From assembly GCA_031271175.1 (NCBI GenBank), contig JAISWE010000190.1:27-64026 (forward strand): a stretch of 64,000 bases of DNA, given 5' to 3'. Each line of letters begins with the position of its first letter. The first letter of the stretch is position 1. This DNA comes from Bacteroidales bacterium (GTDB lineage: Bacteria; Bacteroidota; Bacteroidia; Bacteroidales; UBA4181). Below the pieces are notes generated by a model, which saw only the letters and a list, made by a program, of their open reading frames with translations, made no database searches and had not been told where the DNA came from. Shown in pieces: positions 13,755-33,275 of this stretch. The position numbers and the translations under genes were made by a program.

Positions 13755-13797
13755 ATATTGGTCTCCTTTCCTTGTTAGTTGCTCACACCACCAGTAA

Positions 13798-14071: not shown

Positions 14072-14094
14072 GGTATTGGCCTCCTCTCAAAAGT

Positions 14095-14190
14095 TTATTG
14101 GTAAATCGTCACTTGGACGATACTTGCCGCAATAACGGCCAGCAACAGCAACATCGCGGCGACAAGCATCCAGCGGCCTTGTGGTGTCAT
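14095..14190 (-). CDS. 31-aa single-TM micro-protein (not in the supplied ORF track)
   Basis: The ATG overlaps the stop of the upstream 85-aa ORF in an ATGA arrangement. The translation is MTPQGRWMLVAAMLLLLAVIAASIVQVTIYQ. Confidence 0.45.
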   Translation of the reverse strand: MTPQGRWMLVAAMLLLLAVIAASIVQVTIYQ

Positions 14191-14444: not shown

Positions 14445-14447
14445 GTC

Positions 14448-14825: not shown

Positions 14826-14880
14826 AAAACCACTCCTTTCAAGTTTTCAAGTTTCTCGGTTTTTCTCGGCAATTCTCAGG

Positions 14881-14909
14881 TTGAGTTTTTGCCTTTTCTG
14901 TGTTATACT
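14881..14909 (+). promoter_or_regulatory. sigma-A type promoter (extended -10) for the orphan plus-strand gene
   Basis: TTGAGT (14881-14886), a 17-nt spacer ending in TGt, then TATACT (14904-14909). Confidence 0.55.
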
Positions 14910-15061
14910 TATTACACAAAACCACCCCCTTTCTGCGGCTACTCGAACCTCCTGATAACAGATTAGCAGTTTTTTGAGCCAACTAATATGACGCGAACAG
15001 GTCAATCATTGGTCGGGGGTTGGGTATCTTTTGGACATTTTTTAGACAAGGGGGAAGCACG

Positions 15062-15991: not shown

Positions 15992-16058
15992 GGGCATAAA
16001 AAAAGACCGCCTCGGTTGAGACGGCCTTTCATGCTTGCTTGCGATTGCTGAGACTGAA

Positions 16059-16772
16059 CTATTTAGCCTTTGGGGCAATGACGCTCTCGATGTCATTGTT
16101 ATCGGCTGGGCCGAAATATTCAGCGCCAAAGGATATCTTGGTTCCAAGGCTGGCCCCCACTTTTACTCCAACAGACAGAAGGTTGGGGTTATCGATAAGA
16201 ACGCTGTAATAGCCTATGACATCAATGGATTCGCCAGGTTGAACTGTTATATCGTCAATATAGTGAGTCCAATTGTCTTTCTCTATGGGTTCGGCATAAC
16301 CAGAGCCTACAATGGCGATATAAAGAGGCTGTATCCCTCCCGTTCCCGTAACAGAGTTCTTTACATAGGTATAGACCTTGTAAGGTGAATCCGACCCGTT
16401 GGTTAGATGCGCAGAAAACGGAACCATAAAGGCTTCGCTTGCGCGTCCCGCGATGCGATACATGGACTCATTTGAGCCTGGGTGTTTTGCGTTCCCAGCC
16501 ACAAACTTTCCATACCACATCGTGTAATCAACGGTGATACCATCTTTGGTCTCTTGCCCTGTGATTTTCTCCGTCTCAGACCATGTGGTTTGAGCGTTCC
16601 CGCCGTTTTGGCTCGCACCATTCCCATTTGTCCCTGAGTCGTTTCCATTTTGACCACAGCCAGTCAAGAGAACAAGTCCCAAAACCAAGACTGCGGCCAC
16701 AGCAGCAATAGAAGCAAGCAATTTGCCAGATATTTTACCACCTTGGCCAGTGGTTTTCATGATTTTGCTCAT
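16059..16772 (-). CDS. secreted lipoprotein, function unknown
   Basis: The start was set at ATG 16772 after SD aaaggag. The signal peptide has the lipobox LLTGC, followed by an N/G/S-rich linker and then a beta-rich body. Confidence 0.65.
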   Translation of the reverse strand: MSKIMKTTGQGGKISGKLLASIAAVAAVLVLGLVLLTGCGQNGNDSGTNGNGASQNGGNAQTTWSETEKITGQETKDGITVDYTMWYGKFVAGNAKHPGSNESMYRIAGRASEAFMVPFSAHLTNGSDSPYKVYTYVKNSVTGTGGIQPLYIAIVGSGYAEPIEKDNWTHYIDDITVQPGESIDVIGYYSVLIDNPNLLSVGVKVGASLGTKISFGAEYFGPADNNDIESVIAPKAK

Positions 16773-16943
16773 GATTTTCTCCTTTCTGGCCATTATCTGG
16801 CCAATAAACAATTTATGGCCAGCCCCTTTGGTTGACCACTGGACATATAATGCTTATTAGGATTATGTGACCAACGGTCAATCAAAGATGATAAATACTT
16901 GACAAGATATAAAACAGCGAGCCTGTCAAACAGACTTGAAATC

Positions 16944-16972
16944 ATTATAGCATATTTGAGCATATTTTTCAA
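16944..16972 (-). promoter_or_regulatory. consensus sigma-A promoter for the lipoprotein gene
   Basis: The minus strand reads TTGAAA, a 17-nt spacer, then TATAAT. It is followed by a leader of about 165 nt. Confidence 0.65.
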
Positions 16973-17018
16973 TAGTTTTCTGGACATTTTACAAATTAGC
17001 GTTGCCGCTATCATGGCT

Positions 17019-20000: not shown

Positions 20001-20294
20001 TACATCTTGTTTAGGGAAGCTCGTATAGAGTATGCCAGCCAAGCCAAGAAGAATCAAAACATTGAAAAGCGCAAAATCTCGGCAGAAACTTGGAGACTTG
20101 TGGTATTTGCGAATTAGATATGTGTATAGATAGGCAATCACCACCAACCCCGCTACGCACGCGATTCCGAGCAACACCCACGGAAGCGCTCGGAAGATGC
20201 CAGCGATGAAGTTGTCCCAATCGCTTGGCATATCCGAAGCCGACTCATAAATATGGACTCTAATCGTTTGCGTGAGAGTGCGGGATTCCAGCAT
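17019..20294 (-). CDS. BspA/DUF285-type leucine-rich-repeat surface protein, N-terminally membrane anchored (1091 aa)
   Basis: Two N-terminal TM helices. There are many copies of the DUF285 signature (VTNMSWMF, TSNVTNMAGMF, NTANVVNMAGMFSG, DTSKALNMSNMF, TSEVTNMKGMFSG). I saw no LPXTG motif. Confidence 0.8.
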   Translation of the reverse strand: MLESRTLTQTIRVHIYESASDMPSDWDNFIAGIFRALPWVLLGIACVAGLVVIAYLYTYLIRKYHKSPSFCRDFALFNVLILLGLAGILYTSFPKQDVFFAQDVIDINIVKDESLTNVADNYMYVKTNWLNGYNVLAAAPSFERVTNPDSVYAAEPVGSNRVMMSLVRPDGSMLDEFPSEMEHVYANASPQTEPDNYRIVIAADIEAEEGEYYVDIAWRDDQRDSLMSVSTAQLLIDTSKDNQVIGNTYNTVGPYLETADTITQDMYETDCGTKPSEDEKDKYTEWQTCVKDKFPKFHHWLNAPHPIYRENIKKITFQNSVPDTTVGKGEQKWYGNTKVCWDIGEHQDGQVIACGEYAGDGTLKVGDIKAGVVGDVLKGLVSGLSGLANKVGCVIGGFLSWFGADTACSGEQWDWNSNDAIIYQYGSNLYNITIGQKDWVNAPVDSSNLFFYTGQNTDYFLLGRGLVPRDNSVEWFEMFDWDNPSLPIPVVGATVDFISDIVKEAANALTSPITNTKVCAYMREYTYGPSPINNKAGSCYEGLAATKLEGLSNLKVTNVANMTSMFEGANFNNIGSALGAIARDTGNVTNMSRMFYYNNDMADFNVSFDTSNVEDFSSIFQGSRFGMCNYSGGKSCAEDIGDSEDAVYAGANCGNDKCRIDISSWDTSKALNMSNMFNETRGARNINVSGINTQNVKDMSYMFMAVRAPKIQGIKDLNTANVVNMAGMFSGGALTEIDLSNFNTAKVMNMQQMFENLYLNVESGGSLDLSSFNTSEVTNMKGMFSGSNITTLNLSSFNTEKVTIMAEMFYALGPATQSINVSSFNTTNVTDMSWMFANFQPEIATNWVMCEGIEDSPEQKVAEIYIPASNSQIEDQEEDLLKKLGKTLVYFFTGNKDEDKCVPPSGDSDVDDIVLLIDSYSRNEELTKFSHAPLDLKGFTTSNVTNMAGMFAGSKSDIVYFTPYTRPTDSEELPINERLGFDTGNVTDMSWMFSGISYSPIAKIPLITDKAEKMIGMFAGLQVYDTEQDFDLSSFSSAAKPDMSWMFGSSCVGKNVVFSDDFVLPTDANKKQFWFSLTKDGCASESNIIRK

Positions 20295-20302
20295 TTTTCA
20301 GA

Positions 20303-22591
20303 CTATCTTTTACTTTGTTTGTGAGCATTGATAGCGTTCAGCGCATCAGCAGAGGTAGTTCCTGAGACTTGTCGTTTTATATCAGCAGTAATCGTAGCGT
20401 TACGTTGCGTGCTTGCCGCCTTTGCCACTTGGAGCGTATTAGCATTTGTCGCAGATAGATTGTTTCTGACGTTTGCGTTTGCCGCCGCCTCATTGCCGAG
20501 ACGAGTTAGCGCGTCTTCCGCCTTCACCGCAGTGCTGGTCTGTGCCATTGTTGTTGCGCCAAGTATTGTTGAAGATTCCGTCTGGTTTGCGAGGTTCTTG
20601 AGTTCGGTGACAACCTTATCATCTCCCGCCATTGCTTGCGGGGACATACTGCTGACTTTTTCTACAAATCCAGTAGATAGACTTGCTTCCGTAGCAGTGC
20701 CATCAAGAACACTGGCTCTCATTGAATTAGAGAATCCACCGCCAAATCGCGTAGCCAAGCCCTCAGAAACAGCCATGTTCTGGGCTTCTGCTGCGGCCAG
20801 TTCGGGGCCTTTGAGCGTGCTGACATCCTGTATCATATTTCCTACACCCAATTTATTGACATAGCCCTTTTCTCTTGCCAATGTGAATGCTGCTTGCTGT
20901 TGAGCGACATTCTTTGGCCTCACTCGACCCTCTACAATGTCCCTGATTGCCCCCTCTCCCTTGGATGACAGCCCTATGGTCTCGGTAGCGACATCGTCAT
21001 TGTGCATCTGTGTTCTCAGCGCGTTTGCCTGTGAGGAATCTCCCTGACCCGTGGCCTCATAGTTAGCAAGTGTTCTTTCTTTATTGGCACGTTCTTGAGT
21101 GCTCAGTTTCATATCGCGTTTGATATCGCCCTTTGATTTGATGCCACGGGATGCTTTTTCTTGCTTATATTTATCCATTTGCGGCATGACAGACTTGCCC
21201 ATATCTGTCTGTCGGAAGGCGGCACCAGCGCCACCTTTGAGTGCGCCCATTGCCCCAGCGGACATACCGCCAGTCGCAATACCAACACCCACCATAGCGG
21301 CGGCTGAAACAGCGCCTTGAACCGCATTAGCGGCGGCGGCCATCAATGAACTACATTTTTTCATTAGCGGCTTTACAAACAAGATAGGGGCCGCTATCGC
21401 TACAAACATCCCGACAACTTGTATAATGAACGAACCCAAATTATCATGCGGCAGATTTTGGATTACCATTGACGCAATACTTGAAATGCCTACTATTGCC
21501 CCAAACGCTGGGTATATGAGCAATAAGCCGCCAAAGTTCTTGAACCAGATAAAGAAATACTTTTGGCCTTTCGGGTGAAGCCACAGCACGAAAGCCAACG
21601 GCGATACTATTGTCAAGGCTATCAGAAAAATCAGGCGTATGGAAGTGTATATGGTCGCCATAATAACGGCGTATATCTCAAACAAAACCAAAACCACTAC
21701 AATCACCGCTAAAATCAACCAGATAAACTGTGCGTTTGCCAGCACCGCTAAACTTTTCGCACCCTCTTCAACAGCGGCGCTTGGATTGATAGAGCTTTCA
21801 ATGAGTTCTTTTTGTTTGGCATCTGGCAATCTGCTAAAAACTCCATTCACGGCCATACACTGGTCATAGTCAGCGCCAGTCAGTTTGTAGTTGCTGCCAC
21901 ATAAAATCTTTGCCTGTGCCTCTCCTCCCGCACCCTCAATCAGATTGGCAATAGCTCCACCAGCAATGTTCGATACATCTACCAGCAAAACGCAGATATA
22001 AAACGACAGATTTATGGCAATGGCGGTTATCGCTATTTTCGGCGCAAGTTTTTTCAAGTGGTAGTTCGATATACCGATAGAAGTTATCATTGAGATAATG
22101 GCAATCAGCAGAATGATTATAAATATAATATTTGCCATGGTGGTAAATGCCCCCGTAACATCCCGCATAACCGTAAATGAATCGCCATTATTGAAAATAC
22201 GAACAGTAAACATCCCATTCATTAGGCTGATAAGTGCTTGCGTTACCCCTTTGGACATCAGAATAAACGGACACAGCATAAACGCCATCATAAATCCCGC
22301 GCCCTTTGACCATGTGGATATACAGTTACCAAGCTCAACTATGGCGTCAACAAAGTTTTTGATGCCTTTTATAATATTCACGAGGGTATCAATACCCCAA
22401 ATACCGACATGTCCAGCCGATACGCCGAGTAGTGGTGTTGTATCAGCACCCGCCTCTATGTATGCTGCCGCTTCTTCCTCCATGCTGAGCGCATTGGCAT
22501 TAGATACAGCCAACAGCGGGGATACCAGCATGTTGGCGAGCAACACGACTGGTAGAAAAATAGTGAGTGCCTTTTTTATTCGGTTTTTCAT
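20303..22591 (-). CDS. polytopic membrane protein with long polar C-terminal extension, VirB6/TrbL-like (tentative)
   Basis: 762 aa with a signal peptide, about 8 hydrophobic helices over about 430 aa, a G/A-rich segment and a hydrophilic tail. The stop lies 8 nt upstream of the LRR gene start. The family call rests on architecture only. Confidence 0.45.
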   Translation of the reverse strand: MKNRIKKALTIFLPVVLLANMLVSPLLAVSNANALSMEEEAAAYIEAGADTTPLLGVSAGHVGIWGIDTLVNIIKGIKNFVDAIVELGNCISTWSKGAGFMMAFMLCPFILMSKGVTQALISLMNGMFTVRIFNNGDSFTVMRDVTGAFTTMANIIFIIILLIAIISMITSIGISNYHLKKLAPKIAITAIAINLSFYICVLLVDVSNIAGGAIANLIEGAGGEAQAKILCGSNYKLTGADYDQCMAVNGVFSRLPDAKQKELIESSINPSAAVEEGAKSLAVLANAQFIWLILAVIVVVLVLFEIYAVIMATIYTSIRLIFLIALTIVSPLAFVLWLHPKGQKYFFIWFKNFGGLLLIYPAFGAIVGISSIASMVIQNLPHDNLGSFIIQVVGMFVAIAAPILFVKPLMKKCSSLMAAAANAVQGAVSAAAMVGVGIATGGMSAGAMGALKGGAGAAFRQTDMGKSVMPQMDKYKQEKASRGIKSKGDIKRDMKLSTQERANKERTLANYEATGQGDSSQANALRTQMHNDDVATETIGLSSKGEGAIRDIVEGRVRPKNVAQQQAAFTLAREKGYVNKLGVGNMIQDVSTLKGPELAAAEAQNMAVSEGLATRFGGGFSNSMRASVLDGTATEASLSTGFVEKVSSMSPQAMAGDDKVVTELKNLANQTESSTILGATTMAQTSTAVKAEDALTRLGNEAAANANVRNNLSATNANTLQVAKAASTQRNATITADIKRQVSGTTSADALNAINAHKQSKR

Positions 22592-22616
22592 TTACTGTTT
22601 CCTGTTCATGCTTATT

Positions 22617-22667
22617 CTAATAGTAATAGACCAAAAACAAAAAAGCAATAGAACTATTGAGTTTCAC
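22617..22667 (-). CDS. candidate 16-aa leader mini-ORF (or an ATG-TGA start-stop) behind a very strong SD
   Basis: The minus strand reads ggaggaggacataATGTGAaactc... Reading from GTG gives MKLNSSIAFLFLVYYY. It lies between the leader terminator and the main ATG at 22591. Confidence 0.3.
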   Translation of the reverse strand: MKLNSSIAFLFLVYYY

Positions 22668-22683
22668 ATTATGTCCTCCTCCA

Positions 22684-22715
22684 AACAAAAACCGCCTCTA
22701 AATCAAATGAGGCAG
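22684..22715 (-). terminator. intrinsic terminator inside the 5' leader of the VirB6-like/LRR operon
   Basis: The minus strand reads ctgcctc atttgattta gaggcgg followed by tttttgttt. No minus-strand CDS lies upstream of it. Confidence 0.6.
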
Positions 22716-22740
22716 TTGATATATAGCGCAATAACATGAA

Positions 22741-22804
22741 TCCCCTAAAACGTAACTATGTCCAACTGAAATAGGAATAAATCAAATGGGACCGTTTTAG
22801 GGGA
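22741..22804 (-). promoter_or_regulatory. 12-bp perfect-stem hairpin in the operon leader
   Basis: tcccctaaaacg (22741-22752) pairs exactly with cgttttagggga (22793-22804), with a 40-nt loop. Confidence 0.6.
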
Positions 22805-22839
22805 ATGTAAAACATCTGAATATCAGATATTTCCTCTTG

Positions 22840-22868
22840 ATTCTATATGCTCCTTTATGTGCTGTCAA
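22840..22868 (-). promoter_or_regulatory. sigma-A type promoter driving the leader and the VirB6-like/LRR operon
   Basis: The minus strand reads TTGACA (22868-22863), a 17-nt spacer, then TAGAAT (22845-22840). Confidence 0.55.
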
Positions 22869-23180
22869 TAATGATTATTCGCATAGTGTCAAATACTGGA
22901 TTGGATAATCATCAGGGGTTGAGACTTATAGGGCTTTCTACTAAATATGTCTTTATTTGTAGGCACCGCACAGGAGTGAGCGCCCCATCCTCGCTTGACA
23001 CCAATTGAAAGTAAAAATCACAACACTCAATCCACGCCGCCGCTAATTGTATTCTTGCCTCTGTAATACCGTGTCGCCTCGCTCATAATTACCCCTATTT
23101 CACCCCTATTCTCGCCCCATATTCCATGTAACAATGTCTTTGAGCCGAAAGGCATCGCACATTGAAAGGTGGAATACACA

Positions 23181-24083
23181 ATGAGAATCCAAGTCAATCT
23201 GGGAACCCGCAAGCGCAAGGAATTGGCTGAGGCGGTCGGTGAAATCATCGGTCAAGACAGCCGCTACCAAGGAGCGCCGACCTACGCCTATGAAATTGGG
23301 CGTGTGACGGTGGAACGCGATGGGACGCTCTCTTTTGAGAGTAAGCACATTCGGGACGCAGCATTTACGCACAGGCTGTTGGAGGGTTTGCGTGGGAGAG
23401 GCTTTGCTCCAGAAGTGATTGAGGGACATCTGCCTCAAGGATTAGAAGAGGTAGTGTCCGATGAAGTGTCGGCAACCGCCGCCGAAAACGCTCCTGAGCC
23501 ACCCGCCGAGACAGAACCTGACAAACTCGTTATCCAAATACCGCTTGAAGATTTCAGCAGTAACGCGATTGAAAATCTGCGACTATTGGTGGCGAGCAAG
23601 GCAACCCTCATCAAAAAAGCGCTCAAAGTCAGCGACCTCACCATTCGCCAGACCGAGGATACTCTCGACTTTCCGTGGTTTGACACGATGCCTGAGGCGT
23701 TAGCAATCAAAGTTTATACGCAGTTTATCGAGCAACTGTGTAACATGGCAAAAACGCAGACACGGATTATCGCGGTAGAAAAGCCCACGGACAACGACAA
23801 GTTTGTGATGCGGCTGTTTCTCGTGCGACTCGGCATGAAAGGTGACAAGTATGCCGATGCCAGACGCATATTGCTCCGCGACCTCACAGGTAACGGTTCG
23901 GTCAAGGACGCGAACGCAGTCAGACCGACAGCGCGGGTGGATTCAGCAGAGGGCGCGGAGGCAATGTCAAACAGCGCACACTACCCGCCCGAACGCAATC
24001 AACTCCCATGCCGTAAGTTCTTCCGCAAGTTCATTGAGTATCTTCTCTCTGAGGATGAAGATGATGGAGAGTTTTTGCCGTAA
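23181..24083 (+). CDS. hypothetical conjugative-element protein (300 aa) with acidic C-terminus
   Basis: The ATG at 23181 follows SD gaaaggtgg. The N-terminal RIQVNLGTRKRKELAEAVGEIIG...YQGAPTYAYEIG resembles uncharacterised ORFs I recall from Clostridia mobile elements. That recollection is unverified. Confidence 0.5.
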   Translation: MRIQVNLGTRKRKELAEAVGEIIGQDSRYQGAPTYAYEIGRVTVERDGTLSFESKHIRDAAFTHRLLEGLRGRGFAPEVIEGHLPQGLEEVVSDEVSATAAENAPEPPAETEPDKLVIQIPLEDFSSNAIENLRLLVASKATLIKKALKVSDLTIRQTEDTLDFPWFDTMPEALAIKVYTQFIEQLCNMAKTQTRIIAVEKPTDNDKFVMRLFLVRLGMKGDKYADARRILLRDLTGNGSVKDANAVRPTARVDSAEGAEAMSNSAHYPPERNQLPCRKFFRKFIEYLLSEDEDDGEFLP

Positions 24084-24101
24084 AGTCACCGCAACCACCC
24101 A

Positions 24102-24134
24102 AAAAATCCCGCCATATCGCATGACGGGATTTTT
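24102..24134. terminator. bidirectional intrinsic terminator between convergent genes
   Basis: aaaaatcccg (24102-24111) pairs with cgggattttt (24125-24134). Confidence 0.7.
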
Positions 24135-24153
24135 ACACAGCAATAGAACGAAA

Positions 24154-24621
24154 TCAGTAATCCCACCTCGTCCGCATTTCTACGCCGCTATCATGTAATA
24201 GGCGGGCTATGGTAGTATGCCCTACGCCAAACCGCCCCGCTATTTCATCAGTTTTTGTGCCGCTGTTGTATAGGGCAATAATTTCCGCGCTGTGTTTTGC
24301 TATTTTGCTGTGCGTTACCGTGACCCCACGCTTTTTGAGGTGCTTGCTAATAGCATTGCGCCCACAGCCGTATTTTTTGGCAAGAGCATAAGTGGACGCG
24401 CCCTGCTGGTATTCCGCTACAATGCCGTCTATTTCCGCCGCCGTTAGCCGCTTTTGTGGTTGCTGGATTTTCCGCGCGGCAATTTCGCCATGTTCATCTA
24501 CAAAAGTTTTGCTTGACCCCGCCTCTTCGGTTGTGCTATTATATGGGGTAGATAGGGCATTTTGGCGGTAACGCAATAAGCGGTCAAATTGGTTTTCGTC
24601 AAGTGCCGATAGGGCCACCAA
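24154..24621 (-). CDS. DNA-binding protein with two tandem Hin/resolvase-type HTH motifs
   Basis: GASTYALAKKYGCGRNAISKHLKKRG and TKTDEIAGRFGVGHTTIARLLHDSG are the two motifs. The only possible starts are TTG/GTG at 24621/24618 and neither has an SD, so the start is uncertain or the gene is 5'-truncated. Confidence 0.6.
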   Translation of the reverse strand: MVALSALDENQFDRLLRYRQNALSTPYNSTTEEAGSSKTFVDEHGEIAARKIQQPQKRLTAAEIDGIVAEYQQGASTYALAKKYGCGRNAISKHLKKRGVTVTHSKIAKHSAEIIALYNSGTKTDEIAGRFGVGHTTIARLLHDSGVEMRTRWDY

Positions 24622-24640
24622 AACCGGCGATAAATCGCCA

Positions 24641-24727
24641 AAGTGAAAAGAGAAGAGTGAAGAGTGAAAAACAAGAACGGGTTTGCCGTTTTGTGCTCTT
24701 CACTCTTTTCATTTTTCACTCCCACTC
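24641..24727. repeat. purine/pyrimidine heptad inverted repeat, related to 7257-7363
   Basis: The purine arm is aagtgaaaagagaagagtgaagagtgaaaaacaagaa. The central hairpin is aacgg-gtttg-ccgtt. The pyrimidine arm is ctcttca ctctttt cattttt cactccc. An 11-bp stem agagtgaagag/ctcttcactct can form. Confidence 0.7.
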
Positions 24728-24779
24728 ATCACTGGCTGTGTGATGGGACTTTTCATGTAATACTAACGGAGGCCAAGTT

Positions 24780-24974
24780 ATGAAGGATGTAATATTTACT
24801 GTAAGCTTCATTTTGTCATTTTTGTTGTTGGGAGTTATATGGCTGTGCGAAAAGAAAAAAATCAAATTTATTAATCTAAAATATCAAAGAATCATAGGAA
24901 TAACAGCGATAATATTGTGGGCTGTTTGGAGTATATCTGACCTTGTAGACTTTTTGAAGGATGTTTTTGCCTAA
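24780..24974 (+). CDS. small two-TM membrane protein in an AT-rich patch
   Basis: 64 aa with SD ggagg 9 nt upstream. It has two hydrophobic helices separated by KKKIKFINLKYQR. Confidence 0.55.
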   Translation: MKDVIFTVSFILSFLLLGVIWLCEKKKIKFINLKYQRIIGITAIILWAVWSISDLVDFLKDVFA

Positions 24975-24990
24975 CCCCCGCAACCACCAC

Positions 24991-25023
24991 AAAAAAGCCG
25001 CACCAATTGGTGCGGCTTAAAAA
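24991..25023 (-). terminator. minus-strand-oriented intrinsic terminator with no minus-strand gene to its right
   Basis: agccgcacc-aatt-ggtgcggct (24996-25017). A T6 run follows the hairpin only on the minus strand. On the plus strand the hairpin is followed by taaaaaaa. Confidence 0.55.
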
Positions 25024-25050
25024 AACGAAAGAAACAAAGAGCTATAAAAA

Positions 25051-25085
25051 CTTTCAACTTTCAACTTTCAACTTTCAACTTTCAA
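25051..25085. repeat. (CTTTCAA)x5 perfect heptamer tandem repeat at the junction
   Basis: ctttcaa is read five times without interruption. The tract ends 9 nt before the SusD stop codon. Confidence 0.95.
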
Positions 25086-25094
25086 TTGTTTATG

Positions 25095-26873
25095 TCATTC
25101 CCATCCGGTATTTTGCCAATTGACGCCGGTATGCGTTCTCATTTTGATGGCTTCGCTTTGCGGCAGGGGATAGAGGTAATATTTTTCCTGCCAGGAGGCG
25201 CGTTCAAATCCGATCCTGGTATAGGTCAGGTTGCTGCCGTTTTGGGTGATGCTCATTCCCGTGAGGTAATGTTCCGTTTCTTCGAGTATTTTCCATCTCC
25301 TGACGTCGAAGTAGCGATGTTCTTCAAAAGCAAATTCTATCCGTCGTTCATTGCGGTATTTTTTTTCAAACGCTTCTTTCGACAGGCCTGCCGGGAAAAT
25401 TTTCATGCCAGCCCTGTCGCGCACGGCGTTTACTGCATCGCAGGCGCTGAAGCGGTAGTTCCGTCCTATCTCTATTTTTTCGTCGGGGCCATGCGACTGG
25501 TAGGCCGTTTCGGCAAAATTGAGGTATATCTCGGCCATTCGGAGCAGGCGTACTGCCCCGTCGGCATTGTTGTCGCGCTCGGATTTCCAGTTGTTGTACT
25601 TTCTCAGGTAATAGCCCGTGCGGGTGGTTCGGCGGTCGGCGACGGTAATGCCGTCGGGTTCGCCCACGCAGGTGTTCACCGTCGGCGCGCCGGCGGCAGG
25701 CAGCGTTCTCGGCGCTCCGTTATAATAGATGGTGGCATAAAAACGGGGATCGCGTCCTTCGTAGGGATGGTCGGGATCGTATCCGGAAGCGGCGTTGATG
25801 ATGGGGTTCAGGTGCTGTTCGTCCCTGTAGCCGGTGATGGGCGGTTCGCCCGTTGCCAGCATTTCGTAGCTGTCCACCAGTTCCTGCGTAGGACAGGGGC
25901 CGGCTTTGAGCTGTCCGGGCGTAGAAGGCATTCCTGCGGAACTCCACACTTCCACCGCCGTTCTGCCGTAGATGGTTTCCTTGTCGTAGGCCCGCTGTTC
26001 GTCGGGGCGGGTGATGAAATAGAGCGCATAGCTGTTTTGCGCGATAGCCGGCTTCGGCGTGTCCTCAAAGAGTTCGTATCCGTGGCTGAGGCACTGGTAG
26101 AGCGCTTCGCCGGTGATTTTGGTAGCTTCCTCCAAGCTATAGCCTCCATCGTTCCACAGGGGGCTTATGGCGTAAGTGACGGCCTGCGACTTGATGGCAT
26201 GGGCGACAGCCCGCGTCATGATGCCCGCCTGCCCGTAGAAGACGTTCCACGAAAAACCCCGTTGTACGTCCGGACGCGCCAGGGCGGAATCGCAGTCGGC
26301 CAGAATCTGCTTTACCACTTCCCCGAAAGGCGCCCGAGTGTCGGCGCCGTAATCGTGATCGACGGTATAAGCCTCCGTGATAATGGGAACGGCGCCATAT
26401 CGCTTGATCAGCTGAAGATAATAAAACGCCCGCAAGGTATAAACTTCCGCACTCATCCCGCTGACTTCCGCTTCCGTGAGCATCACGTCTTCCGCCACCA
26501 CATGGCGGATGTTGGCCAGGAAGATATTGCACTTGCGAATGCCTTCGAAATAGCTGCTCCACGGATTGCCGTCGGTAGCGGAAAAGGAAGCGGCATTGTA
26601 CACGTTGCCGTACCAGTAGCTGTACAGCGAGTTGGCAAAATTACCGTCGGCTTCCTGCGCATCGTCGCAAAGCGCCGAACGGTTGTAGTGGGTTACCGGC
26701 ACGTAGAGGTAACAGGCGTTACGGTACGCGCCGATGCCCCCTTTGGTGGCAAACACTTTCGGTATCGTGCTTCGCCCGTCGTTTTCCATTTCCAGCAGGT
26801 CGTTGCAGGAGGTGTAAATGAGTCCTGCACCGACCGAGAACCATACCATCACATATTTTTTCATTGCATCCAT
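25095..26873 (-). CDS. SusD/RagB-family nutrient-binding outer-membrane lipoprotein
   Basis: 592 aa with the lipoprotein signal MKKYVMVWFSVGAGLIYTSC. It has SusD-like helical repeats and ends ...NWQNTGWE. It lies directly downstream of a susC fragment. Confidence 0.85.
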   Translation of the reverse strand: MDAMKKYVMVWFSVGAGLIYTSCNDLLEMENDGRSTIPKVFATKGGIGAYRNACYLYVPVTHYNRSALCDDAQEADGNFANSLYSYWYGNVYNAASFSATDGNPWSSYFEGIRKCNIFLANIRHVVAEDVMLTEAEVSGMSAEVYTLRAFYYLQLIKRYGAVPIITEAYTVDHDYGADTRAPFGEVVKQILADCDSALARPDVQRGFSWNVFYGQAGIMTRAVAHAIKSQAVTYAISPLWNDGGYSLEEATKITGEALYQCLSHGYELFEDTPKPAIAQNSYALYFITRPDEQRAYDKETIYGRTAVEVWSSAGMPSTPGQLKAGPCPTQELVDSYEMLATGEPPITGYRDEQHLNPIINAASGYDPDHPYEGRDPRFYATIYYNGAPRTLPAAGAPTVNTCVGEPDGITVADRRTTRTGYYLRKYNNWKSERDNNADGAVRLLRMAEIYLNFAETAYQSHGPDEKIEIGRNYRFSACDAVNAVRDRAGMKIFPAGLSKEAFEKKYRNERRIEFAFEEHRYFDVRRWKILEETEHYLTGMSITQNGSNLTYTRIGFERASWQEKYYLYPLPQSEAIKMRTHTGVNWQNTGWE

Positions 26874-26876
26874 GAT

Positions 26877-28397
26877 TTAGAATTTTATACTTAATCCGAT
26901 ATTGTAAATCCGGTACACCGGGATGGACATAAAGTGTCCTTCCGGGCCGTAGTCGTCTGTGTCTAAGTGGTGCCACGTGAGCAGATTTTGTCCGCTCAGC
27001 AGCAGCCGTACCTTTTCCGCGCCGATGAGCCTTGCCGCCCTGTCGGGAAAGGTATAGCCTATTTCGAGGTTTTTCAGCCGCAGATACGATTTGTTTTCCA
27101 GCCAGAACTCTCCTGCTTCGTGGTTGGCGTTGGCTTTGGTGGAGAGCGCGGGAAAAGTGATCTTTTCGCCTTTGGCATAACGTTCTTCCGTCCATGCATT
27201 GCGGTGCAGTGTGCCGTACACGCCTTCAAAGCTGTATTCCACGCGGCCGTCGCCCTGTAATATTCCGTAGAGGCCGCCCACTCCCTGAAACATGACGTTC
27301 AGGTCGAAATTGCCGAAGGTCGCTCCTGCATGAAAGGCATAGGTGTAGAGCGGTTGGCTGCCGAACCCGATCGGCGCCTTGTCCTTTTCGTTGATGATGC
27401 CGTCATTGTTCAGGTCGTAATATTTCAGGTCGCCCACTCTCGGCGTTCCTATTTCATACAGCAGGCCGCTTCCGATCAGTTCTTCCGCGCTGTTGAAATA
27501 GCCGTTGCCGTTGTGCCGGTCTGTCAGGTAGCCGAACTGCTGTCCCACAGGATAGCCTTCTTCCCATTTGCGCCAGGCATAATCTTCCGCCCGTTCGCTT
27601 TCGTCCGAAAAAATGATCCTGTTTTCGGTATGCGCCAGCCATCCTCCGAGATGGAAAGAAAAGCGGCGGTTCACGGTTTTGATGTAATCGGCTGCCAATT
27701 CGTAGCCTTTGTTTTCAAAGAGGCCGTTGTTCACTTTCGGGAAATTATCCAGTGGGACGCCCTGGTAAAGCGGGGTAACGGATATTCCGCCACAGATCAT
27801 GTTGTTGATTTTTTCCCTGAAAATGTCTGCCGAGAAGGATATGTTTCCCCACAGGGAGAGGTCGATCCCGTAGTTTTGGCGGACGGATATTTCCGGCATC
27901 AGGTTGGGGTTGGCGATCTGTCCTTCGTAAGCGTATCCGCTGGTAAGGGAGATATTGTCCAAGTAGGTATATCTTCCCAGCCCGCACTGGTCATTGGCGG
28001 CCTGTCCGTAAGAGGCTCTCAGTTTGAGCAGGCTGAGCCATGAAAGGTCGCCGGCGAAGGCTTCTTCCGACACCACCCATCCCACCGCGACCGCTTGTAC
28101 CGGCGTAAACCGTTTTTTTCTGGAATACTGGTCAGACCCGCTATATCCCAGATCGTATTTGACCAGATAGCGTCCGTTATATGCATAGGCTAATTCCAGC
28201 CCTGTGTTCACCCGTTTGTAGGGAAACACTTCGGTGGGCGTCACCAAGTTCTGGAAATGGGAAAAGGCGAAAGCAGCGATGTCATGTTTGCCGAAGCTGC
28301 GTTTGTAGTCAAGTACGCCCTTGTAGTTCAGGTTATAGTAGAATGAGGATGTTTTTCCGTAGGACAGCGGCGTGTCCACCGCCGTAACAACCGACAT
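26877..28397 (-). pseudogene. C-terminal half (about 506 aa) of a SusC/RagA TonB-dependent transporter; 5' half missing
   Basis: The beta-barrel-type sequence ends ...YRIYNIGLSIKF. There is no plug, CarboxypepD_reg domain or signal peptide. The frame closes at a TGA just upstream of 28397. Confidence 0.7.
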
Positions 28398-31326
28398 AGA
28401 CGGCAGTTTTACTATTAGTGTAAAGCCTGAGGATCAGTTGGAAGTGTCCTTTGTCGGTTACGAGTCGCAAACCGTTGCGGTGGGCGAACGGAAAGTGATC
28501 GCCGTGCAGCTCAAACCCAAAGCCGACGAACTGGAAGAGGTGACCATCGTGGCCTTCGGCAAACAGAAAAAGGAAAGCGTGGTGGCATCCGTTACCACCA
28601 TCAACCCTGCCGAACTGAAAGTGCCTTCCAGCAACCTGACCACTGCCCTGGCAGGCAACATGGCGGGGGTGATCGCCTACCAGCGAAGCGGAGAGCCGGG
28701 AAAGGACAATGCCGACTTCTTTGTCAGGGGCATCACCACTTTCGGAACCAACACAAGCCCGCTGATCCTCATTGACGGTATCGAGCTGACCTCTACCGAT
28801 CTGGCGCGACTGCAACCCGACGACATCGCCAGCTTTTCCATCATGAAAGATGCTACTGCTACTGCCTTATACGGCGCGCGCGGAGCCAACGGCGTCATAT
28901 TGGTGACCACCAAACAGGGCGCCGCCGGGCCGGCAAAAATCTCCCTGCGTGTGGAAAATTCCCTTTCCATGCCCACCCGCAACGTGGAACTGGCCGATCC
29001 GATCACCTATATGCAATTGCACAACGAGGCTGTGCTTACCCGCGAACCGCTGGCAAGGCTTCCCTATTCGGACGACAAAATCCGATATACCGCCGAAGGC
29101 AAGTATCCGCTTTATTATCCGCAAACCGACTGGATGGACATGTTACTCAAAAATTATACCATGAACCAGCGGGCCAATCTGAGTGTCAGCGGGGGCGCAG
29201 ACATCGCCAAATACTATGTGGCCGCTTCCTTCGCCAAAGACAACGGCATCCTGAAAGTGGACAAACGCCAGAATTTCAACAACAACATCGACAACAAATC
29301 TTATACCCTGCGCGCCAATGTCAATATCAACCTGACGAAAACCACCGAACTGGCGGTACGCTTAAGCGGCTCCTTCGACGATTACAGCGGGCCGCTCACC
29401 GGCGGAACAGATATGTACAACCTGATCATGCATACCAATCCCGTACTTTTTCCCGCTTATTTCCCCGTAACGGAGGACAGCAAATTTATCAACCATATCA
29501 TGTTCGGCAACCATCCGGACGGATATACCAATCCCTACGCCGAAATGGTACGGGGCTACAAAGACTGGTCGCGTTCGCAACTGCTGGCGCAGTTGGAAGC
29601 AAAGCAGGATATGAACTTCCTTACCGAAGGGCTTTCTGTCAGGGCAATGCTGAATATTTCGCGTTTGGCGCAGTTTTCCGTCAACCGTTTTTACATTCCC
29701 ACCTATTACGCTATCGGCAGCTTTGATAAAATGACGGGCGAATATAGCCTGAAGCGGCTGAACGAAAACGGAACGGAGTATCTGGATTACGGCGAAAACC
29801 CGGGCGACAGGATGATCAACTCCACCTTCTATTTTGAAGGAATGCTCAACTATGCGCGCGACTTTGCCGAAAAGCACAGCGTGAGCGGTTTGCTCGTTTT
29901 CATGGCGCGCAACGAACTGTATGCCAACGCCGGTACCCTGCAACTGTCGCTCCCCTCGCGCAATCTCGGACTGTCGGGACGCCTGACCTACGGCTACGAC
30001 AAGCGCTACTACACCGAGCTTAACTTCGGCTACAACGGCTCCGAGCGTTTCCACCCCGACCACCGTTTCGGCTTTTTCCCTTCGGGGGGCATTGCATGGA
30101 ACCTTTCCAACGAAACATTCTGGGAACCGCTCAAACCGGTGGTATCCAACCTGAAGCTGCGCTATTCCTACGGACTGGTGGGCAATGACCAGATAGGAGC
30201 CGCAACGGACAGGTTCTTTTACCTTTCGGAAGTGAGCATGAACGATCCGGCAAAAAGTCGGACTTTCGGCAGGGAAAAGGGAGAAAGCCTGAACGGCGTG
30301 ACCGTCAATCGGTATGCCAATCCCGACATTAGCTGGGAGGTGGCCGTCAAACAAAATTTCGCCCTGGAACTGGGGTTGTGGGAAAAGCTCAGCATCATTG
30401 CCGAATATTTCATCGAATACCGCAAGAATATCCTGATGGCGAGGGCTTCCATACCCTCGACCATGGGACTGTCGGAGGTGATGAAAGCCAATGTGGGAGA
30501 AGCTTCGGGACATGGCGTGGACATCAGCCTGGAATACCAGCAGAACTGGACTACGGAGTTCTGGACTTCGGCGCGCGCCAATTTCACCTACGCTTCCAGT
30601 CGCTACGAGGTATATGAAGAACCGCAATATCAGGAATACTGGCGCCTGCACGAAGGCAAAAAGCTTTCCCAGGAATACGGCTACATTGCCGAGCGGCTGT
30701 TCATCGACGACAAAGAGGCCGCCAACTCGCCGCCGCAGGAAATAGGCAATGAACCCTATGGGGGAGGCGACATCAAATATACCGATGTGAGCGGCGACAA
30801 AAAAGTCAATACGGCAGACGTCGTGCCGATCGGCAATCCTCTCGTCCCGGAAATCGTATATGGGTTCGGCTTCTCCACAGGCTACAAGGGATGGGATGTA
30901 TCGGTATTTTTTCAAGGCGCCGCCAACGAATCATTTTGGATCGACGCGGCGAGCACTGCTCCCTTCCAGTCACACACCCAGTTGCTGAAAGCTTATGCCG
31001 ACAGCCACTGGAGCGAAGCCGACCAGGACGAATATGCCCTCTGGCCGCGACTGAGTAACAAACTGGTCAGCAATAATGTCGCCCGCAGCACATGGTTCAT
31101 GCGCGACGGAGCCTTTTTGAGGCTCAAACAGGCGGAAATCGGTTATACGATCCCCGGCAAATGGCAACAAAAACTGCGAATCGGACAGTTGAGATGCTAT
31201 CTCAGCGGAACCAACCTGTGGCTGTTGAGCAAATTCAAACTTTGGGATGTGGAAATGGCCGGCAACGGATTGGGGTATCCCATCCAGAAAGTATTCAATA
31301 TAGGATTAAATGTAACTTTTAATTAA
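28372..31326 (+). CDS. SusC/RagA TonB-dependent transporter lacking its first ~60-70 aa (no signal peptide); probably inactive as it stands
   Basis: The ORF opens right after an in-frame TAG (28360-28362), in the middle of the CarboxypepD_reg-like domain (..TTDIDGSFTISVKPEDQLEVSFVGYESQ..). The plug (FGKQKKESVVASVTTI) and barrel are complete and end ...NIGLNVTFN. Confidence 0.75.
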   Translation: MSTAVTTDIDGSFTISVKPEDQLEVSFVGYESQTVAVGERKVIAVQLKPKADELEEVTIVAFGKQKKESVVASVTTINPAELKVPSSNLTTALAGNMAGVIAYQRSGEPGKDNADFFVRGITTFGTNTSPLILIDGIELTSTDLARLQPDDIASFSIMKDATATALYGARGANGVILVTTKQGAAGPAKISLRVENSLSMPTRNVELADPITYMQLHNEAVLTREPLARLPYSDDKIRYTAEGKYPLYYPQTDWMDMLLKNYTMNQRANLSVSGGADIAKYYVAASFAKDNGILKVDKRQNFNNNIDNKSYTLRANVNINLTKTTELAVRLSGSFDDYSGPLTGGTDMYNLIMHTNPVLFPAYFPVTEDSKFINHIMFGNHPDGYTNPYAEMVRGYKDWSRSQLLAQLEAKQDMNFLTEGLSVRAMLNISRLAQFSVNRFYIPTYYAIGSFDKMTGEYSLKRLNENGTEYLDYGENPGDRMINSTFYFEGMLNYARDFAEKHSVSGLLVFMARNELYANAGTLQLSLPSRNLGLSGRLTYGYDKRYYTELNFGYNGSERFHPDHRFGFFPSGGIAWNLSNETFWEPLKPVVSNLKLRYSYGLVGNDQIGAATDRFFYLSEVSMNDPAKSRTFGREKGESLNGVTVNRYANPDISWEVAVKQNFALELGLWEKLSIIAEYFIEYRKNILMARASIPSTMGLSEVMKANVGEASGHGVDISLEYQQNWTTEFWTSARANFTYASSRYEVYEEPQYQEYWRLHEGKKLSQEYGYIAERLFIDDKEAANSPPQEIGNEPYGGGDIKYTDVSGDKKVNTADVVPIGNPLVPEIVYGFGFSTGYKGWDVSVFFQGAANESFWIDAASTAPFQSHTQLLKAYADSHWSEADQDEYALWPRLSNKLVSNNVARSTWFMRDGAFLRLKQAEIGYTIPGKWQQKLRIGQLRCYLSGTNLWLLSKFKLWDVEMAGNGLGYPIQKVFNIGLNVTFN

Positions 31327-31334: not shown

Positions 31335-33275
31335 ATGAAAAAAAGTAAAAAAACACCGAACGTACGGCGCAGCTATGCCGCACGCGGCATAGGATGTCTC
31401 ATCATGGCGCTGGCCTGCTGGTGCATGGCCTGCAACAAATGGATAGACGTAGTGCCGGAAGGTATCAGCGAACTGGGCAATGCTTTCTCCCTTAGAAGCG
31501 AAGCCAAAAAATACCTCTACACCTGTTATTCCTACATGCCTGCACACGGCAATCCAGAGGGCGATCCCTCCATAACGGGCGGAGACGAACTGTTCCACGT
31601 TTTCGACTATGGCTGGACATGGGTATCGAACGCAGGCGGTTACCTTTCCCGGGGGCAGCAACATGCGGGCAATGTGCTGTTCAACGACTGGGGGGGGATG
31701 TACCGGGGTATCAGGGACTGCAATATTTTCCTGGAAAATGTGGCTTCCGTACCCGACCTCCGGCAAACGGAAAGAGACCGGTGGATAGCAGAAGCGAACT
31801 TCCTGAAAGCCTATTACCACTTTTGGTTGCTGCGCAAATACGGCCCCATACCGCTTATCAGGGAGAACCTGCCGATCAGCGCCGGAGTGGAGGAAGTGCG
31901 GGTGTGGCGCGAGCCTGTGGACACCTGCGCCAACTATATCATACGGCTGATTGAACGGGCAATACCGTCGCTTCCGCTGTTTATCACCAATGAAACGGAG
32001 GAGCTGGGACGCATCACGCAAGTGATAGCCCGCGCCGCCAAAGCCAAAATATTAGTGACCATGGCCAGCCCGCTCTTCAACGGCAACACCGACCAGGCCA
32101 CCCTGCGCAACAGCCCCGACGAGCCGTCGCTTTTCGATCAGGAGTCACGGATCGAAAAATGGAACAGGGCGCTGCAAGCCTGCGAAGAAGCCATTGCCGC
32201 CTGCGAAGAAGCCGGCATCAACCGCCTCTACAGGTATCCGGGCAACCCGCGCTACACCCTTTCCAACGAAATCATACAGCAACTCACCCTGCAATGCGCC
32301 TTTACCGAAAAATGGAACGAGGAAATAATCTGGGGCGACTCGGGACAGGCGATCCACCTCGGTCTGGTTCTCTCCTGTTTGACGGCGCTGAACCCCAGTT
32401 TCGCCACCAATATCAACTATTTTAAAAACGATATGGCTGTCCCGTTGAAAATAGCCGAAATGTTTTACTCTAAAAACGGCGTACCCATCAACGAAGACAA
32501 AACCTGGAATTACGGACTGAGAAACGAACTTCGGACGGCCGGAGCAAACGAAAAAATGTACATCCGGCAGGGGGAAACTACCGCCAACCTGCATTTCGAC
32601 CGCGAACCCCGCTTCTATGCATTCATAGGCTTCGATCGGGGAATATGGTACGGACACGGACAATATGAAGATTCCAAAACAAGCGACCTGTTTTATGCCA
32701 AATATCGGCTGGGAGAACTCACCGCCGGAGAAAGCCGCGCCACTTGTGCTGCAAAAAAATACGACCATTTTGAGAACGAACAAACCAAAGTCAATGACTA
32801 TGGAGGGCCAATCACCGTATGGCCGGTGATGCGCCTGAGCGACCTCTACCTGCTGTATGCCGAAGCCCTGAACGAAGCCGCCGATTCGGAAACCAACAGA
32901 GCCTTGGCACGGCAATATCTGAACCGCATCCGGGATCGCGCCGGATTAGGCACGGTGGAACGCTGCTGGGACGACTTCTCTTCCACCCCCGACAAATACA
33001 AAACGCAAGCCGATTTGCGGAATATCATCCGGCAGGAACGGACGATAGAACTGGCCTTTGAAGGACAGCGTTTCTGGGACATCCGCAGGTGGAAAACAGC
33101 CGCTCAGGAATACGAAACACCCATTGAAGGATGGAACTGGGAAGGAATAGGACTGCTGTTCTATCGACGGCAGTTCATCTTCAAACAGCAGTTCGGAATA
33201 AAGGATTATTTCTGGCCGATCGCCAACAGCGAACGGGACGTCAACCCCAACTTAGTGCAAAACATCGGATGGTAA
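31335..33275 (+). CDS. SusD/RagB-family lipoprotein
   Basis: 646 aa with signal Cys (MACNKW). It has SusD-like motifs (LRKYGPIPLI, RFWDIRRWK) and lies immediately after susC. Confidence 0.85.
   Translation: MKKSKKTPNVRRSYAARGIGCLIMALACWCMACNKWIDVVPEGISELGNAFSLRSEAKKYLYTCYSYMPAHGNPEGDPSITGGDELFHVFDYGWTWVSNAGGYLSRGQQHAGNVLFNDWGGMYRGIRDCNIFLENVASVPDLRQTERDRWIAEANFLKAYYHFWLLRKYGPIPLIRENLPISAGVEEVRVWREPVDTCANYIIRLIERAIPSLPLFITNETEELGRITQVIARAAKAKILVTMASPLFNGNTDQATLRNSPDEPSLFDQESRIEKWNRALQACEEAIAACEEAGINRLYRYPGNPRYTLSNEIIQQLTLQCAFTEKWNEEIIWGDSGQAIHLGLVLSCLTALNPSFATNINYFKNDMAVPLKIAEMFYSKNGVPINEDKTWNYGLRNELRTAGANEKMYIRQGETTANLHFDREPRFYAFIGFDRGIWYGHGQYEDSKTSDLFYAKYRLGELTAGESRATCAAKKYDHFENEQTKVNDYGGPITVWPVMRLSDLYLLYAEALNEAADSETNRALARQYLNRIRDRAGLGTVERCWDDFSSTPDKYKTQADLRNIIRQERTIELAFEGQRFWDIRRWKTAAQEYETPIEGWNWEGIGLLFYRRQFIFKQQFGIKDYFWPIANSERDVNPNLVQNIGW

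Follow-up and report, generated by a model that had tools for sequence, protein, structure and literature searches.

The analysed stretch of 64,000 nucleotides (hereafter the window) is very probably an assembly chimera, in which Oscillospiraceae/Clostridia-like DNA (positions 1 to ~25,048) was joined to Bacteroidales DNA (~25,086 to 64,000) across a (CTTTCAA)n microsatellite. The phylum-level switch within the sequence is real and lies at ~25,049–25,097. The false join is deduced from the sequence, and we attribute it almost certainly to assembly error rather than to inter-phylum gene transfer. The window comes from a short-read-type MAG contig of 64,063 bp, labelled 'MAG: Bacteroidales bacterium' in NCBI and IMG (LBS03_ tags), and is continuous (0 Ns). 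All window proteins that we tested, those of the left side included, occur in NCBI and/or IMG on this source contig and on no other. The junction is known from this one contig, with no independent copy. The original prediction had allowed for a binning chimera as well as a misassembly; the former is impossible, because both halves lie on one contig.

At a single point in the contig, the oligonucleotide composition changes together with the expression signals and the taxonomic affinity. Tetranucleotide usage correlates at 0.71–0.86 among 4-kb chunks from 24,001 rightwards and at 0.17–0.63 between these chunks and those left of 24,001, so the comparison of the two sides suggested in the original prediction turned out as it had anticipated. 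A third-order Markov log-likelihood ratio flips sign between the intervals 24,950–25,099 and 25,000–25,149. On the left, AGGAGG-type SD motifs lie 5–12 nt before a plausible start in ~11–13 of 19 genes, and a perfect TTGACA-N17-TATAAT promoter is found at 7429–7457. On the right, none of 26 genes has an SD motif of ≥5 nt at its first start, the upstream regions are A/T-rich, and TTTG-N19-TAnnTTTG promoters are present at 45143–45173 and, on the minus strand, at 57670–57700. These signals had been described correctly for both sides, as had the left-hand ppa with two tRNAs and the gene content of the right-hand side. The abrupt switch itself, placed at ~25,086, is borne out by tetranucleotide usage, SD motifs, promoters and Markov likelihoods; its exact position is not, since it falls inside 25,049–25,085 or on the left border of that interval.

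The left 25 kb had been called Clostridia-like throughout. The affinity holds, but the segment is not uniform: host chromosome (1–7560) is followed by a mobile element (7561–24614) and then by host DNA again (24615–~25048). As a whole, positions 1–25,048 read as a coherent piece of an Oscillospiraceae/Clostridia-like chromosome, not as an island. Its features are as follows.

3–281, plus strand: partial ppa (inorganic pyrophosphatase), C-terminal 93 residues, truncated by the left contig end (tblastn)
302–7141: block A, Clostridia/Oscillospiraceae-like chromosomal genes (Pfam, SD motifs)
3163–3200: imperfect (CTTTCAA)5 array between two convergent terminators, in block A
7161–7236, plus strand: tRNA-Ala(CGC) (ARAGORN, Rfam)
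7481–7557, plus strand: tRNA-Met(CAT), with its own TTGACA-N17-TATAAT promoter at 7429–7457 (ARAGORN, Rfam, sequence)
7552–7560, plus strand: left 9-bp direct repeat CCACCAAAA (tRNA 3' end plus AAA), putative attL core, a 9-mer common with 24615–24623
7561–24614: element B, ~17.05 kb, integrative mobilizable or conjugative, Firmicutes type (Pfam, nucleotide homology, composition)
7514–9283, minus strand: large serine recombinase (Resolvase, Recombinase and Zn_ribbon_recom; Pfam)
9805–10647: Replic_Relax protein of element B (Pfam)
10862–13000: T4SS coupling protein of element B, TrwB-type (Pfam)
13203–13754: MT-A70 methylase of element B (Pfam)
17019–20294: DUF285 surface protein of element B (Pfam)
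24154–24618: HTH protein of element B
24615–24623, plus strand: right 9-bp direct repeat CCACCAAAA, putative attR core, displaced tRNA 3' end
24624–25048: segment A', ~430 bp of block-A host DNA resuming after element B (alignment, SD, Markov likelihood)
24780–24974: 64-aa ORF with GGAGG SD, in A'
25018–24995, minus strand: terminator (terminator scan)

The partial ppa matches that of a Clostridia-like relative, L016, at 52% identity (tblastn, E 7e-28). Block A encodes a nitroreductase, a 674-aa protein, an SPFH protein, two Tim44-like genes and a 150-aa membrane protein, with SD motifs and sigma70-type promoters. The best SPFH homologues are 65–69% identical and adjoin Tim44, and one or another of their contigs carries ppa, IF3-L35-L20 or a SleB-type Hydrolase_2. 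The tRNA-Ala is followed by a long hairpin (~7250–7365) with one purine-rich and one pyrimidine-rich arm. The tRNA-Met core shares 98% identity with a sequence of Monoglobus pectinilyticus. Rfam reported the two tRNAs and nothing else in the window, and megablast of 7,400–25,200 against plasmids and phages returned no match except the tRNA.

Element B brings together a terminal large serine recombinase, flanking direct repeats and transfer genes, and tRNA-Met is its integration target. The recombinase is presumably akin to those of the Tn4451/Tn5397 type. The element further encodes a 762-aa membrane protein and a 304-aa protein; L022, the closest contig for the latter, stops before the right border of the element. 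In the scanned ORFs of the element (≥100 aa), Pfam found neither a VirB4/TraE-type ATPase nor a classical MOB relaxase, and several large ORFs are without a Pfam match, so that a divergent mating-pair system may be encoded; a complete one would mark the element as an ICE and not an IME. Positions 7481–14968 are ~76–85% identical at the nucleotide level to L026, L027 and L028 (82% over 7481–13736). In L026, an Oscillospiraceae MAG contig, and in L027, the 82%-identical element sits behind a different tRNA, and homology begins exactly after CCACCA, which confirms the left border of element B. We placed the right border, seen in this single copy, from the repeat and the host-like flank.

Apart from the serine recombinase, the left 25 kb contains no recombinase, so that this enzyme explains element B rather than the join, 460 nt beyond the element's end. 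Element B could still have acted as a bridge if it were present in both genomes, the assembler having walked from A to B and then from B to C, in which case the B/C junction would be a true insertion site. Its composition, a separate tetranucleotide block with intermediate correlations of ~0.5 to both block A and block C (the Bacteroidales DNA on the right), would fit this, as would the multi-copy occurrence of B-like elements in the related JGI/Logan samples (L026–L028). We nevertheless give this reading practically no weight. The element terminates at the direct repeat 24615–24623, 460 nt short of the join, and the 430 nt between element B and the array are block-A-like, neither element nor Bacteroidales DNA. 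The named relatives of the B proteins are Oscillospiraceae, the B-like element of L026 lies on a contig that also bears SpoIIP, and all B genes have SDs.

Segment A' contains a small hairpin and, at 24642–24714, a long hairpin with purine and pyrimidine arms that is paralogous to the spacer after tRNA-Ala (alignment with 7225–7375). A false join further left, within 24,624–25,048, would make the terminator, the 64-aa ORF or the hairpin Bacteroidales DNA. The orientation of the terminator suits susD, and in the Bacteroidales MAG L001 the array after susD is followed by a purine-rich GTGAAGA-type run and a hairpin that loosely resemble 24,642–24,714. Yet 24,606–24,740 aligns with the post-tRNA-Ala spacer of block A, a remnant of the tRNA 3' end included, the 64-aa ORF has its GGAGG SD, and the Markov likelihood prefers block A over block C across 24,700–25,099. 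No repeat that might nucleate a join was seen within 24,624–25,048. We therefore consider a join in this segment extremely unlikely, and place it probably in the array at 25,049–25,085.

The features from the array rightwards are as follows.

25049–25085: perfect (CTTTCAA)5.3 array, 37 nt, reading (TTGAAAG)n in the susD sense (TRF)
25095–26873, minus strand: SusD_b, RagB/SusD family, 592 aa, MDR1667870 (Pfam)
26877–28385, minus strand: SusC_b, C-terminal 502 codons only (blastn/tblastn against L001, L002, L024 and L025)
28366–28386: second abnormal junction, mid-susC; homology to intact SusC_b ends at 28,385/6
28372–31326, plus strand: SusC_a, without ~55 N-terminal residues (signal peptide and start of CarboxypepD_reg)
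31335–33275: SusD_a, after SusC_a; the remainder of block C (Bacteroidales) extends from here to 64,000

A SusD scan of GTDB genomes and JGI metagenomes yielded relatives of ≤85% amino acid identity only, SusD_b being 85% identical to its counterpart in L001. Cluster look-ups provided two relatives with 95% nucleotide identity over SusD_b, L024 (JGI 3300042590) and L025 (Logan SRR14710918), both of which are 95.3% identical to window positions 25,049–28,386. In both, the susD stop is followed by the same 9-nt spacer and the same heptamer unit as in the window. The closeness of stop and array had been taken as abnormal; its presence in two independent contigs contradicts this, and the spacer and array after susD are native to the Bacteroidales side. 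The orthologous array of L024 has at least 16.9 copies (at least 118 nt) and reaches the contig end, and the L025 contig also terminates in the array. Because both independent contigs of the Bacteroidales locus end within it, the array is a proven assembly-breaker, and the sequence that truly follows susD lies beyond both. Short-read assembly thus fails on the very low-complexity repeat at which the join lies.

The (CTTTCAA)5 pattern occurs in the window at 3163–3200 and 25,051–25,085 only, with 0 occurrences expected by chance. The unit is therefore found in the Oscillospiraceae-like and the Bacteroidales parts, and also in related Bacteroidales contigs from other samples. A de Bruijn graph would merge all perfect arrays of one 7-nt unit that are longer than k into a single cycle of seven nodes, so that perfect microsatellites with the same unit would act as graph hubs. 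The assembler may have reached this cycle along one genome and exited along the other, which would leave an array of minimal length, 37 nt; no biological process would have acted at the junction. At k = 33, a minimal pass through a period-7 cycle is expected to give 33–39 nt, a range that includes the 37-nt array, and 33 is the smallest k in JGI's usual metaSPAdes setting. This scenario assumes a perfect (CTTTCAA)n at the A' end in the Clostridia-like genome, by extension from the imperfect array at 3163–3200. The Clostridia-like part itself is a piece of chromosome in which a 17-kb mobile element has integrated at a tRNA.

Several lines of evidence support the misjoin. Composition, SD usage, promoter types and Markov likelihood ratios agree on a switch at ~25,000–25,100; neither a recombinase nor an att site is found at the join; and the left segment is not flanked by Bacteroidales DNA, the contig starting inside ppa. 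With a coherent left fragment, an array that breaks assemblies and no second copy of the junction, a misassembly nucleated at a low-complexity repeat remains the best reading, as first proposed. Against it, the copy number of microsatellites is naturally variable, so 5.3 copies may be genuine, and the terminator would suit susD were the contig correct. This terminator had been noted as oriented for a minus-strand gene that was absent. The terminator was found again, but a gene is not missing: in the assembled contig susD is the upstream minus-strand gene, 75 nt away.

Were the junction genuine, a Bacteroidales chromosome would carry at least 25 kb of Oscillospiraceae-type DNA beside susD through recent inter-phylum transfer, which we regard as very improbable. 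The unbroken sequence and the position and orientation of the terminator speak for it, and the recurrence of the junction array unit inside block A could be read as the signature of one genome. L001, a Bacteroidales relative, likewise has heptamer arrays and purine-rich runs, and at the equivalent place after susD its heptamer array is a different one. However, period-7 arrays number five in ~8 kb of left host DNA and zero in the 39 kb of block C, so the arrays are not a genome signature common to both sides. The left segment retains the full set of Firmicutes-type SDs and promoters together with housekeeping genes, a left Bacteroidales flank is absent, and the junction is seen in a single contig. 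The features of a genomic island or ICE are likewise lacking. Recipient DNA does not occur on both flanks, as the contig begins within the foreign segment at the partial ppa. At the join there is neither an integrase nor an att site; the sole recombinase of the left 25 kb is that of element B, whose repeats start at 7552 and 24615, the latter 460 nt inside the segment. Rather than accessory cargo, the segment carries ppa, tRNA-Ala and tRNA-Met with its own sigma70-type promoter. In a variant of this reading, foreign DNA would have been taken up at the hypervariable (TTGAAAG)n after susD, perhaps by recombination between identical arrays of both phyla; this too we hold to be very unlikely. We thus retain the misjoin across the array as the explanation of the contig.

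The sequence from ~25,086 to 64,000 reads as Bacteroidales PUL and housekeeping DNA, with three SusC/SusD pairs, a T9SS sorting domain, a ParC/GyrA-family gene and a GNAT plus acyltransferase pair. It contains a second abnormal junction in the middle of susC. SusC_b lacks 518–519 N-terminal codons relative to the intact L024 gene (~570 by the longer gene call in L001) and, compared with full-length P0225, is cut at codon 519–520 of 1020. Beyond 28,385/6 the gene gives way, head-to-head, to a different SusC, SusC_a. The missing N-terminal half of SusC_b was found on a 7,585-nt contig, source of the proteins MDR1666463 and MDR1666464, that is broken at the same codon and, judged from accession numbers, belongs to the same MAG. 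The N-terminal loss of SusC_a is seen in its Pfam match, which begins at profile position 26, and in a tblastn offset against SusC1 of L001.

Three origins were considered for this second junction. A SusC/SusD shufflon was rejected: the cut falls at codon 519–520 of 1020 and not in the 5' region, and the head-to-head abutment of SusC_b and SusC_a leaves neither gene with a start or promoter. A k-mer common to both susC genes at 28,366–28,385 (~17–20 nt) was unsupported, as P0224 diverges right after codon T519; the P0224 tail, PVAFPFI, was not found in a six-frame search of the window and all loci. An inverted chimera of the MDA type was also considered.

As a most likely artefact, the junction carries no biological weight as a finding; its value is for quality control. 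A 64-kb contig of a public MAG that bears a Bacteroidales label includes ~25 kb of Clostridia-type DNA, and Clostridia-type proteins (SPFH, Tim44-like, recombinase, T4CP, DUF285 and others) stand in NCBI nr under this label. From such mislabelled proteins, spurious claims of gene transfer between phyla and incorrect taxonomic profiles can arise. A concrete failure mode is also apparent here, in which perfect heptamer microsatellites with one unit in unrelated genomes would become hubs of the assembly graph.

Comparison with known systems sets element B apart from the join. Like tRNA-targeting Firmicutes IMEs and ICEs, element B has a terminal large serine recombinase, a T4SS coupling protein, a replication-relaxation protein and short direct repeats, one of which is the tRNA 3' end. 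This likeness concerns element B only, related copies of which lie at another tRNA in an Oscillospiraceae MAG, and does not extend to the join. Genuine Firmicutes-to-Bacteroides transfers are represented by conjugative transposons with Gram-positive erm genes, such as CTnBST and CTnGERM1, in which a Bacteroides-type element, equipped with its own integrase and bordered by host DNA on either side, carries accessory cargo. The window resembles these cases in having Gram-positive-type DNA beside Bacteroidales genes. It differs in that the foreign part is chromosomal (ppa, tRNAs) and has neither a left flank nor an integration module at its border. With inter-genome chimeras from short-read de Bruijn assembly, the window shares the abrupt change, at one position, in composition, taxonomic affinity and signals for expression, a join at a perfect tandem repeat that ends independent assemblies of the locus, the absence of a mobile-element boundary at the join, and occurrence in a single contig. 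Unlike the long shared genes (rRNA, IS) found at such misjoins, the repeat here is a 7-nt microsatellite, spanning 37 nt in the contig.

By tetranucleotide usage the window falls into three blocks: 1 to ~7,500 (block A), ~7,500 to ~25,000 (block B) and 25,000 to 64,000 (block C). Chunks from 24,001 rightwards correlate with one another at 0.71–0.86, versus 0.17–0.35 with A and 0.27–0.63 with B, and a third-order Markov likelihood ratio flips sign between test windows 24,950–25,099 and 25,000–25,149. Shine–Dalgarno motifs precede most left-hand genes; on the right they precede 0 of 26, and the upstream regions are A/T-rich. tRNA-Met has a perfect TTGACA-N17-TATAAT promoter upstream, and on the right TTTG-N19-TAnnTTTG promoters lie upstream of the ParC-family gene (45194–47881) and the ketol-acid reductoisomerase gene (56577–57623, minus strand). 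Gene content changes at the same place: partial ppa, nitroreductase, SPFH, two Tim44-like genes, two tRNAs and a mobile element on the left; three SusC/SusD pairs, DUF4959/DUF5126/DUF5000, a T9SS-tailed protein, MlaE/ABC, the ParC-family gene, a sulfatase and Pfam matches of PurN, MazG, QueG, HisA/F and IlvC types on the right. Composition, expression signals and gene content together confirm the phylum-level switch that the original prediction placed at about 25,086.

Block C also carries a 22-nt tandem array (TTTAGGGAAAAGGTATATAGGT; ~18 copies, 95% matches) at 41971–42369, with direct repeats of ~100 nt on either side (41866–41965 and 42370–42475). The array lies in a stretch of low GC content that separates a glutathione peroxidase gene from a GNAT/acyltransferase pair, and had no match in Rfam.

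The left 25 kb is Clostridia-type throughout. The closest relatives of its SPFH protein (65–69% identical) adjoin a Tim44-like gene, in neighbourhoods that also hold ppa, IF3-L35-L20, DprA and TopA (contig L016) or a SleB-type cortex hydrolase (L019–L021), a Clostridia-type setting. Over its core, tRNA-Met shares 98% identity with a Monoglobus pectinilyticus sequence. Block B encodes a large serine recombinase, a TrwB-type coupling protein (T4CP), an MT-A70 methylase, an HTH protein, a DUF285 surface protein and a replication-relaxation protein; the last shares at least 90% identity with its counterpart in an Oscillospiraceae MAG. Window 7,481–14,968 shares ~76–85% nucleotide identity (82% over 7,481–13,736) with contigs L026, L027 and L028; L026, from the same Oscillospiraceae MAG, also encodes SpoIIP. 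The 9-mer CCACCAAAA occurs at both 7552–7560 and 24615–24623, and the recombinase ORF crosses the element border ~45 nt into tRNA-Met, antisense to it. Block B is therefore a ~17.05-kb integrative element at the 3′ end of tRNA-Met in the block-A genome. Homology with the L026/L027 element starts exactly after the tRNA CCACCA; because that relative, 82% identical, lies downstream of tRNA-Ala(CGC), the family seems to target a generic tRNA 3′ end, ...CCACCA.

Downstream of the second 9-mer copy lies a paralogue of the block-A spacer that follows tRNA-Ala, with a small hairpin as well as a purine-rich and a pyrimidine-rich run separated by a loop; the Markov test also assigns this DNA to block A. 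Host DNA (A′) thus resumes at 24,624. Since the element is bounded by the 9-mer repeats and followed by block-A-like DNA, 1–25,048 is a single coherent Oscillospiraceae/Clostridia-like chromosome fragment. Bridging of the contig through a mobile element common to two genomes is ruled out by the return of host DNA, and the sole recombinase in the left 25 kb, belonging to an insertion inside the block-A genome, is unrelated to the join. Long hairpins with purine-rich or pyrimidine-rich heptamer-like arms (GTGAAGA/GAGAAAA-type units) occur at window 7250–7365 and 24642–24714 and at L026 18090–18169. Found after tRNA genes and in intergenic positions in Oscillospiraceae-like DNA and this relative, they may represent a lineage-specific terminator or spacer style.

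On the other side of the join, window 25,097–28,385 is colinear with Bacteroidales MAG contig L001 (84% nucleotide identity), and two independent contigs, L024 (JGI 3300042590) and L025 (Logan SRR14710918), match 25,049–28,386 at 95.3% identity. In L024 and L025 alike, the ~10-nt spacer seen in the window comes directly after the susD stop and gives way to (TTGAAAG)n, the susD-sense reading of the (CTTTCAA)5.3 array at the join. Perfect or near-perfect heptamer arrays directly follow susD stops at these positions:

Window 25049–25085, array at the join, downstream of the minus-strand susD
L024 5046–5084 and 9934–10051
L025 196–241 and 5091–5118
L001 454–478, 11268–11303 and 11547–11585

The post-susD array of L024 runs for at least 16.9 copies to the last base of the contig, and L025 likewise ends inside (TTGAAAG)n; in these relatives the array is long enough to halt short-read assemblers. 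A second such array in L024 spans the entire gap from the first susD stop to the start of susC_b, the susC gene that adjoins the join-side susD in the window. L001 has (AATTAAG)5 at the orthologous post-susD position. The short distance of 9 nt between the susD stop and the tract, leaving no 3′ UTR, had been taken as abnormal; L024 and L025 reveal it as the native state of the lineage. Array units in this lineage are TTGAAAG, TTGAAAA and AATTAAG, varying between 85%-identical relatives, with up to at least 17 copies; the TGA or TAA inside them places stops in all three frames.

Elsewhere in the window the CTTTCAA unit occurs only at 3163–3200, in block A between two convergent terminators, with 0 matches expected by chance in the window; the unit is thus common to the Oscillospiraceae-like block and the post-susD site of the Bacteroidales part. 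Five period-7 arrays lie on the left, all in host DNA and none in the element, and the 39 kb on the right hold none. In IMG/VR, (CTTTCAA)4 is rare (7 of 2.9 million contigs).

These arrays suggest how the contig arose. In a de Bruijn graph, perfect arrays of one heptamer that are longer than k would collapse into one and the same 7-node cycle, which any locus with such an array, whatever its genome, would enter and exit. A path in from the A′ flank and out to the susD flank would leave an array of minimal length, between k and k+6 bases, and the 37-nt array at the join is compatible with k=33, the lowest value in the metaSPAdes settings that JGI customarily uses, which may differ from those used for this sample. 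A chimeric contig made at low k would be carried to higher-k rounds if the true array exceeded the read span. The proposed misassembly nucleated at a low-complexity repeat is supported and fits this mechanism. Its position needs amending: the array is native to, or shared with, the Bacteroidales side, which places the probable false join inside 25,049–25,085 or at its left edge.

A real transfer, placing Clostridia-type DNA beside Bacteroidales DNA, would make the junction genuine, and we consider this very improbable. The contig starts inside ppa, so no Bacteroidales DNA is present left of the foreign segment; its right border has no integration module; its cargo includes housekeeping genes and tRNAs whose Firmicutes-type signals are intact; and it was observed once only. 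The window is essentially the whole of a 64,063-bp MAG contig, each window protein tested by exact-sequence match (LBS03_092xx–093xx, MDR1667850–76, entered as 'MAG: ... [Bacteroidales bacterium]'; also in JGI/IMG) was on this contig only, and no independent copy of the junction was found in the sequence collections searched.

A second junction lies 3.3 kb to the right. Homology to intact susC_b (L001, L002, L024 and L025) ends at 28,385/6, at codon 519–520 of 1020, and beyond this point lies another susC, susC_a, in head-to-head orientation and lacking ~55 N-terminal residues:

Window 28366–28386, head-to-head fusion of the C-terminal half of susC_b (minus strand) with 5′-truncated susC_a (plus strand)

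The absent N-terminal half of susC_b is found on a 7,585-nt contig (P0224, MDR1666464), apparently from the same MAG, judging by accession numbers, where it adjoins MDR1666463, an orthologue of the first susD in L024. MDR1666464 departs from intact susC_b at the same codon as the window break and ends in the tail PVAFPFI and a stop. The junction could be a second misassembly, although a coincident clean break in both contigs fits poorly with a simple shared-k-mer misjoin; it could also be a real rearrangement in the strain. The break means that the 3.3-kb susC′–susD fragment by the join meets non-native sequence at both ends.

Our analysis supports the chimera reading, with its details corrected: the join is most likely an artefact and no biological feature. 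About 20 Clostridia-type proteins from window 1–25048 stand in NCBI nr under '[Bacteroidales bacterium]', among them (MDR1667850–69) SPFH, 'zinc-ribbon transport protein', '39S ribosomal protein L45', the recombinase, the replication-relaxation protein and DUF285. These labels are probably taxonomic mislabels due to the chimera, and a contamination warning is due for this public MAG and for its proteins in nr.
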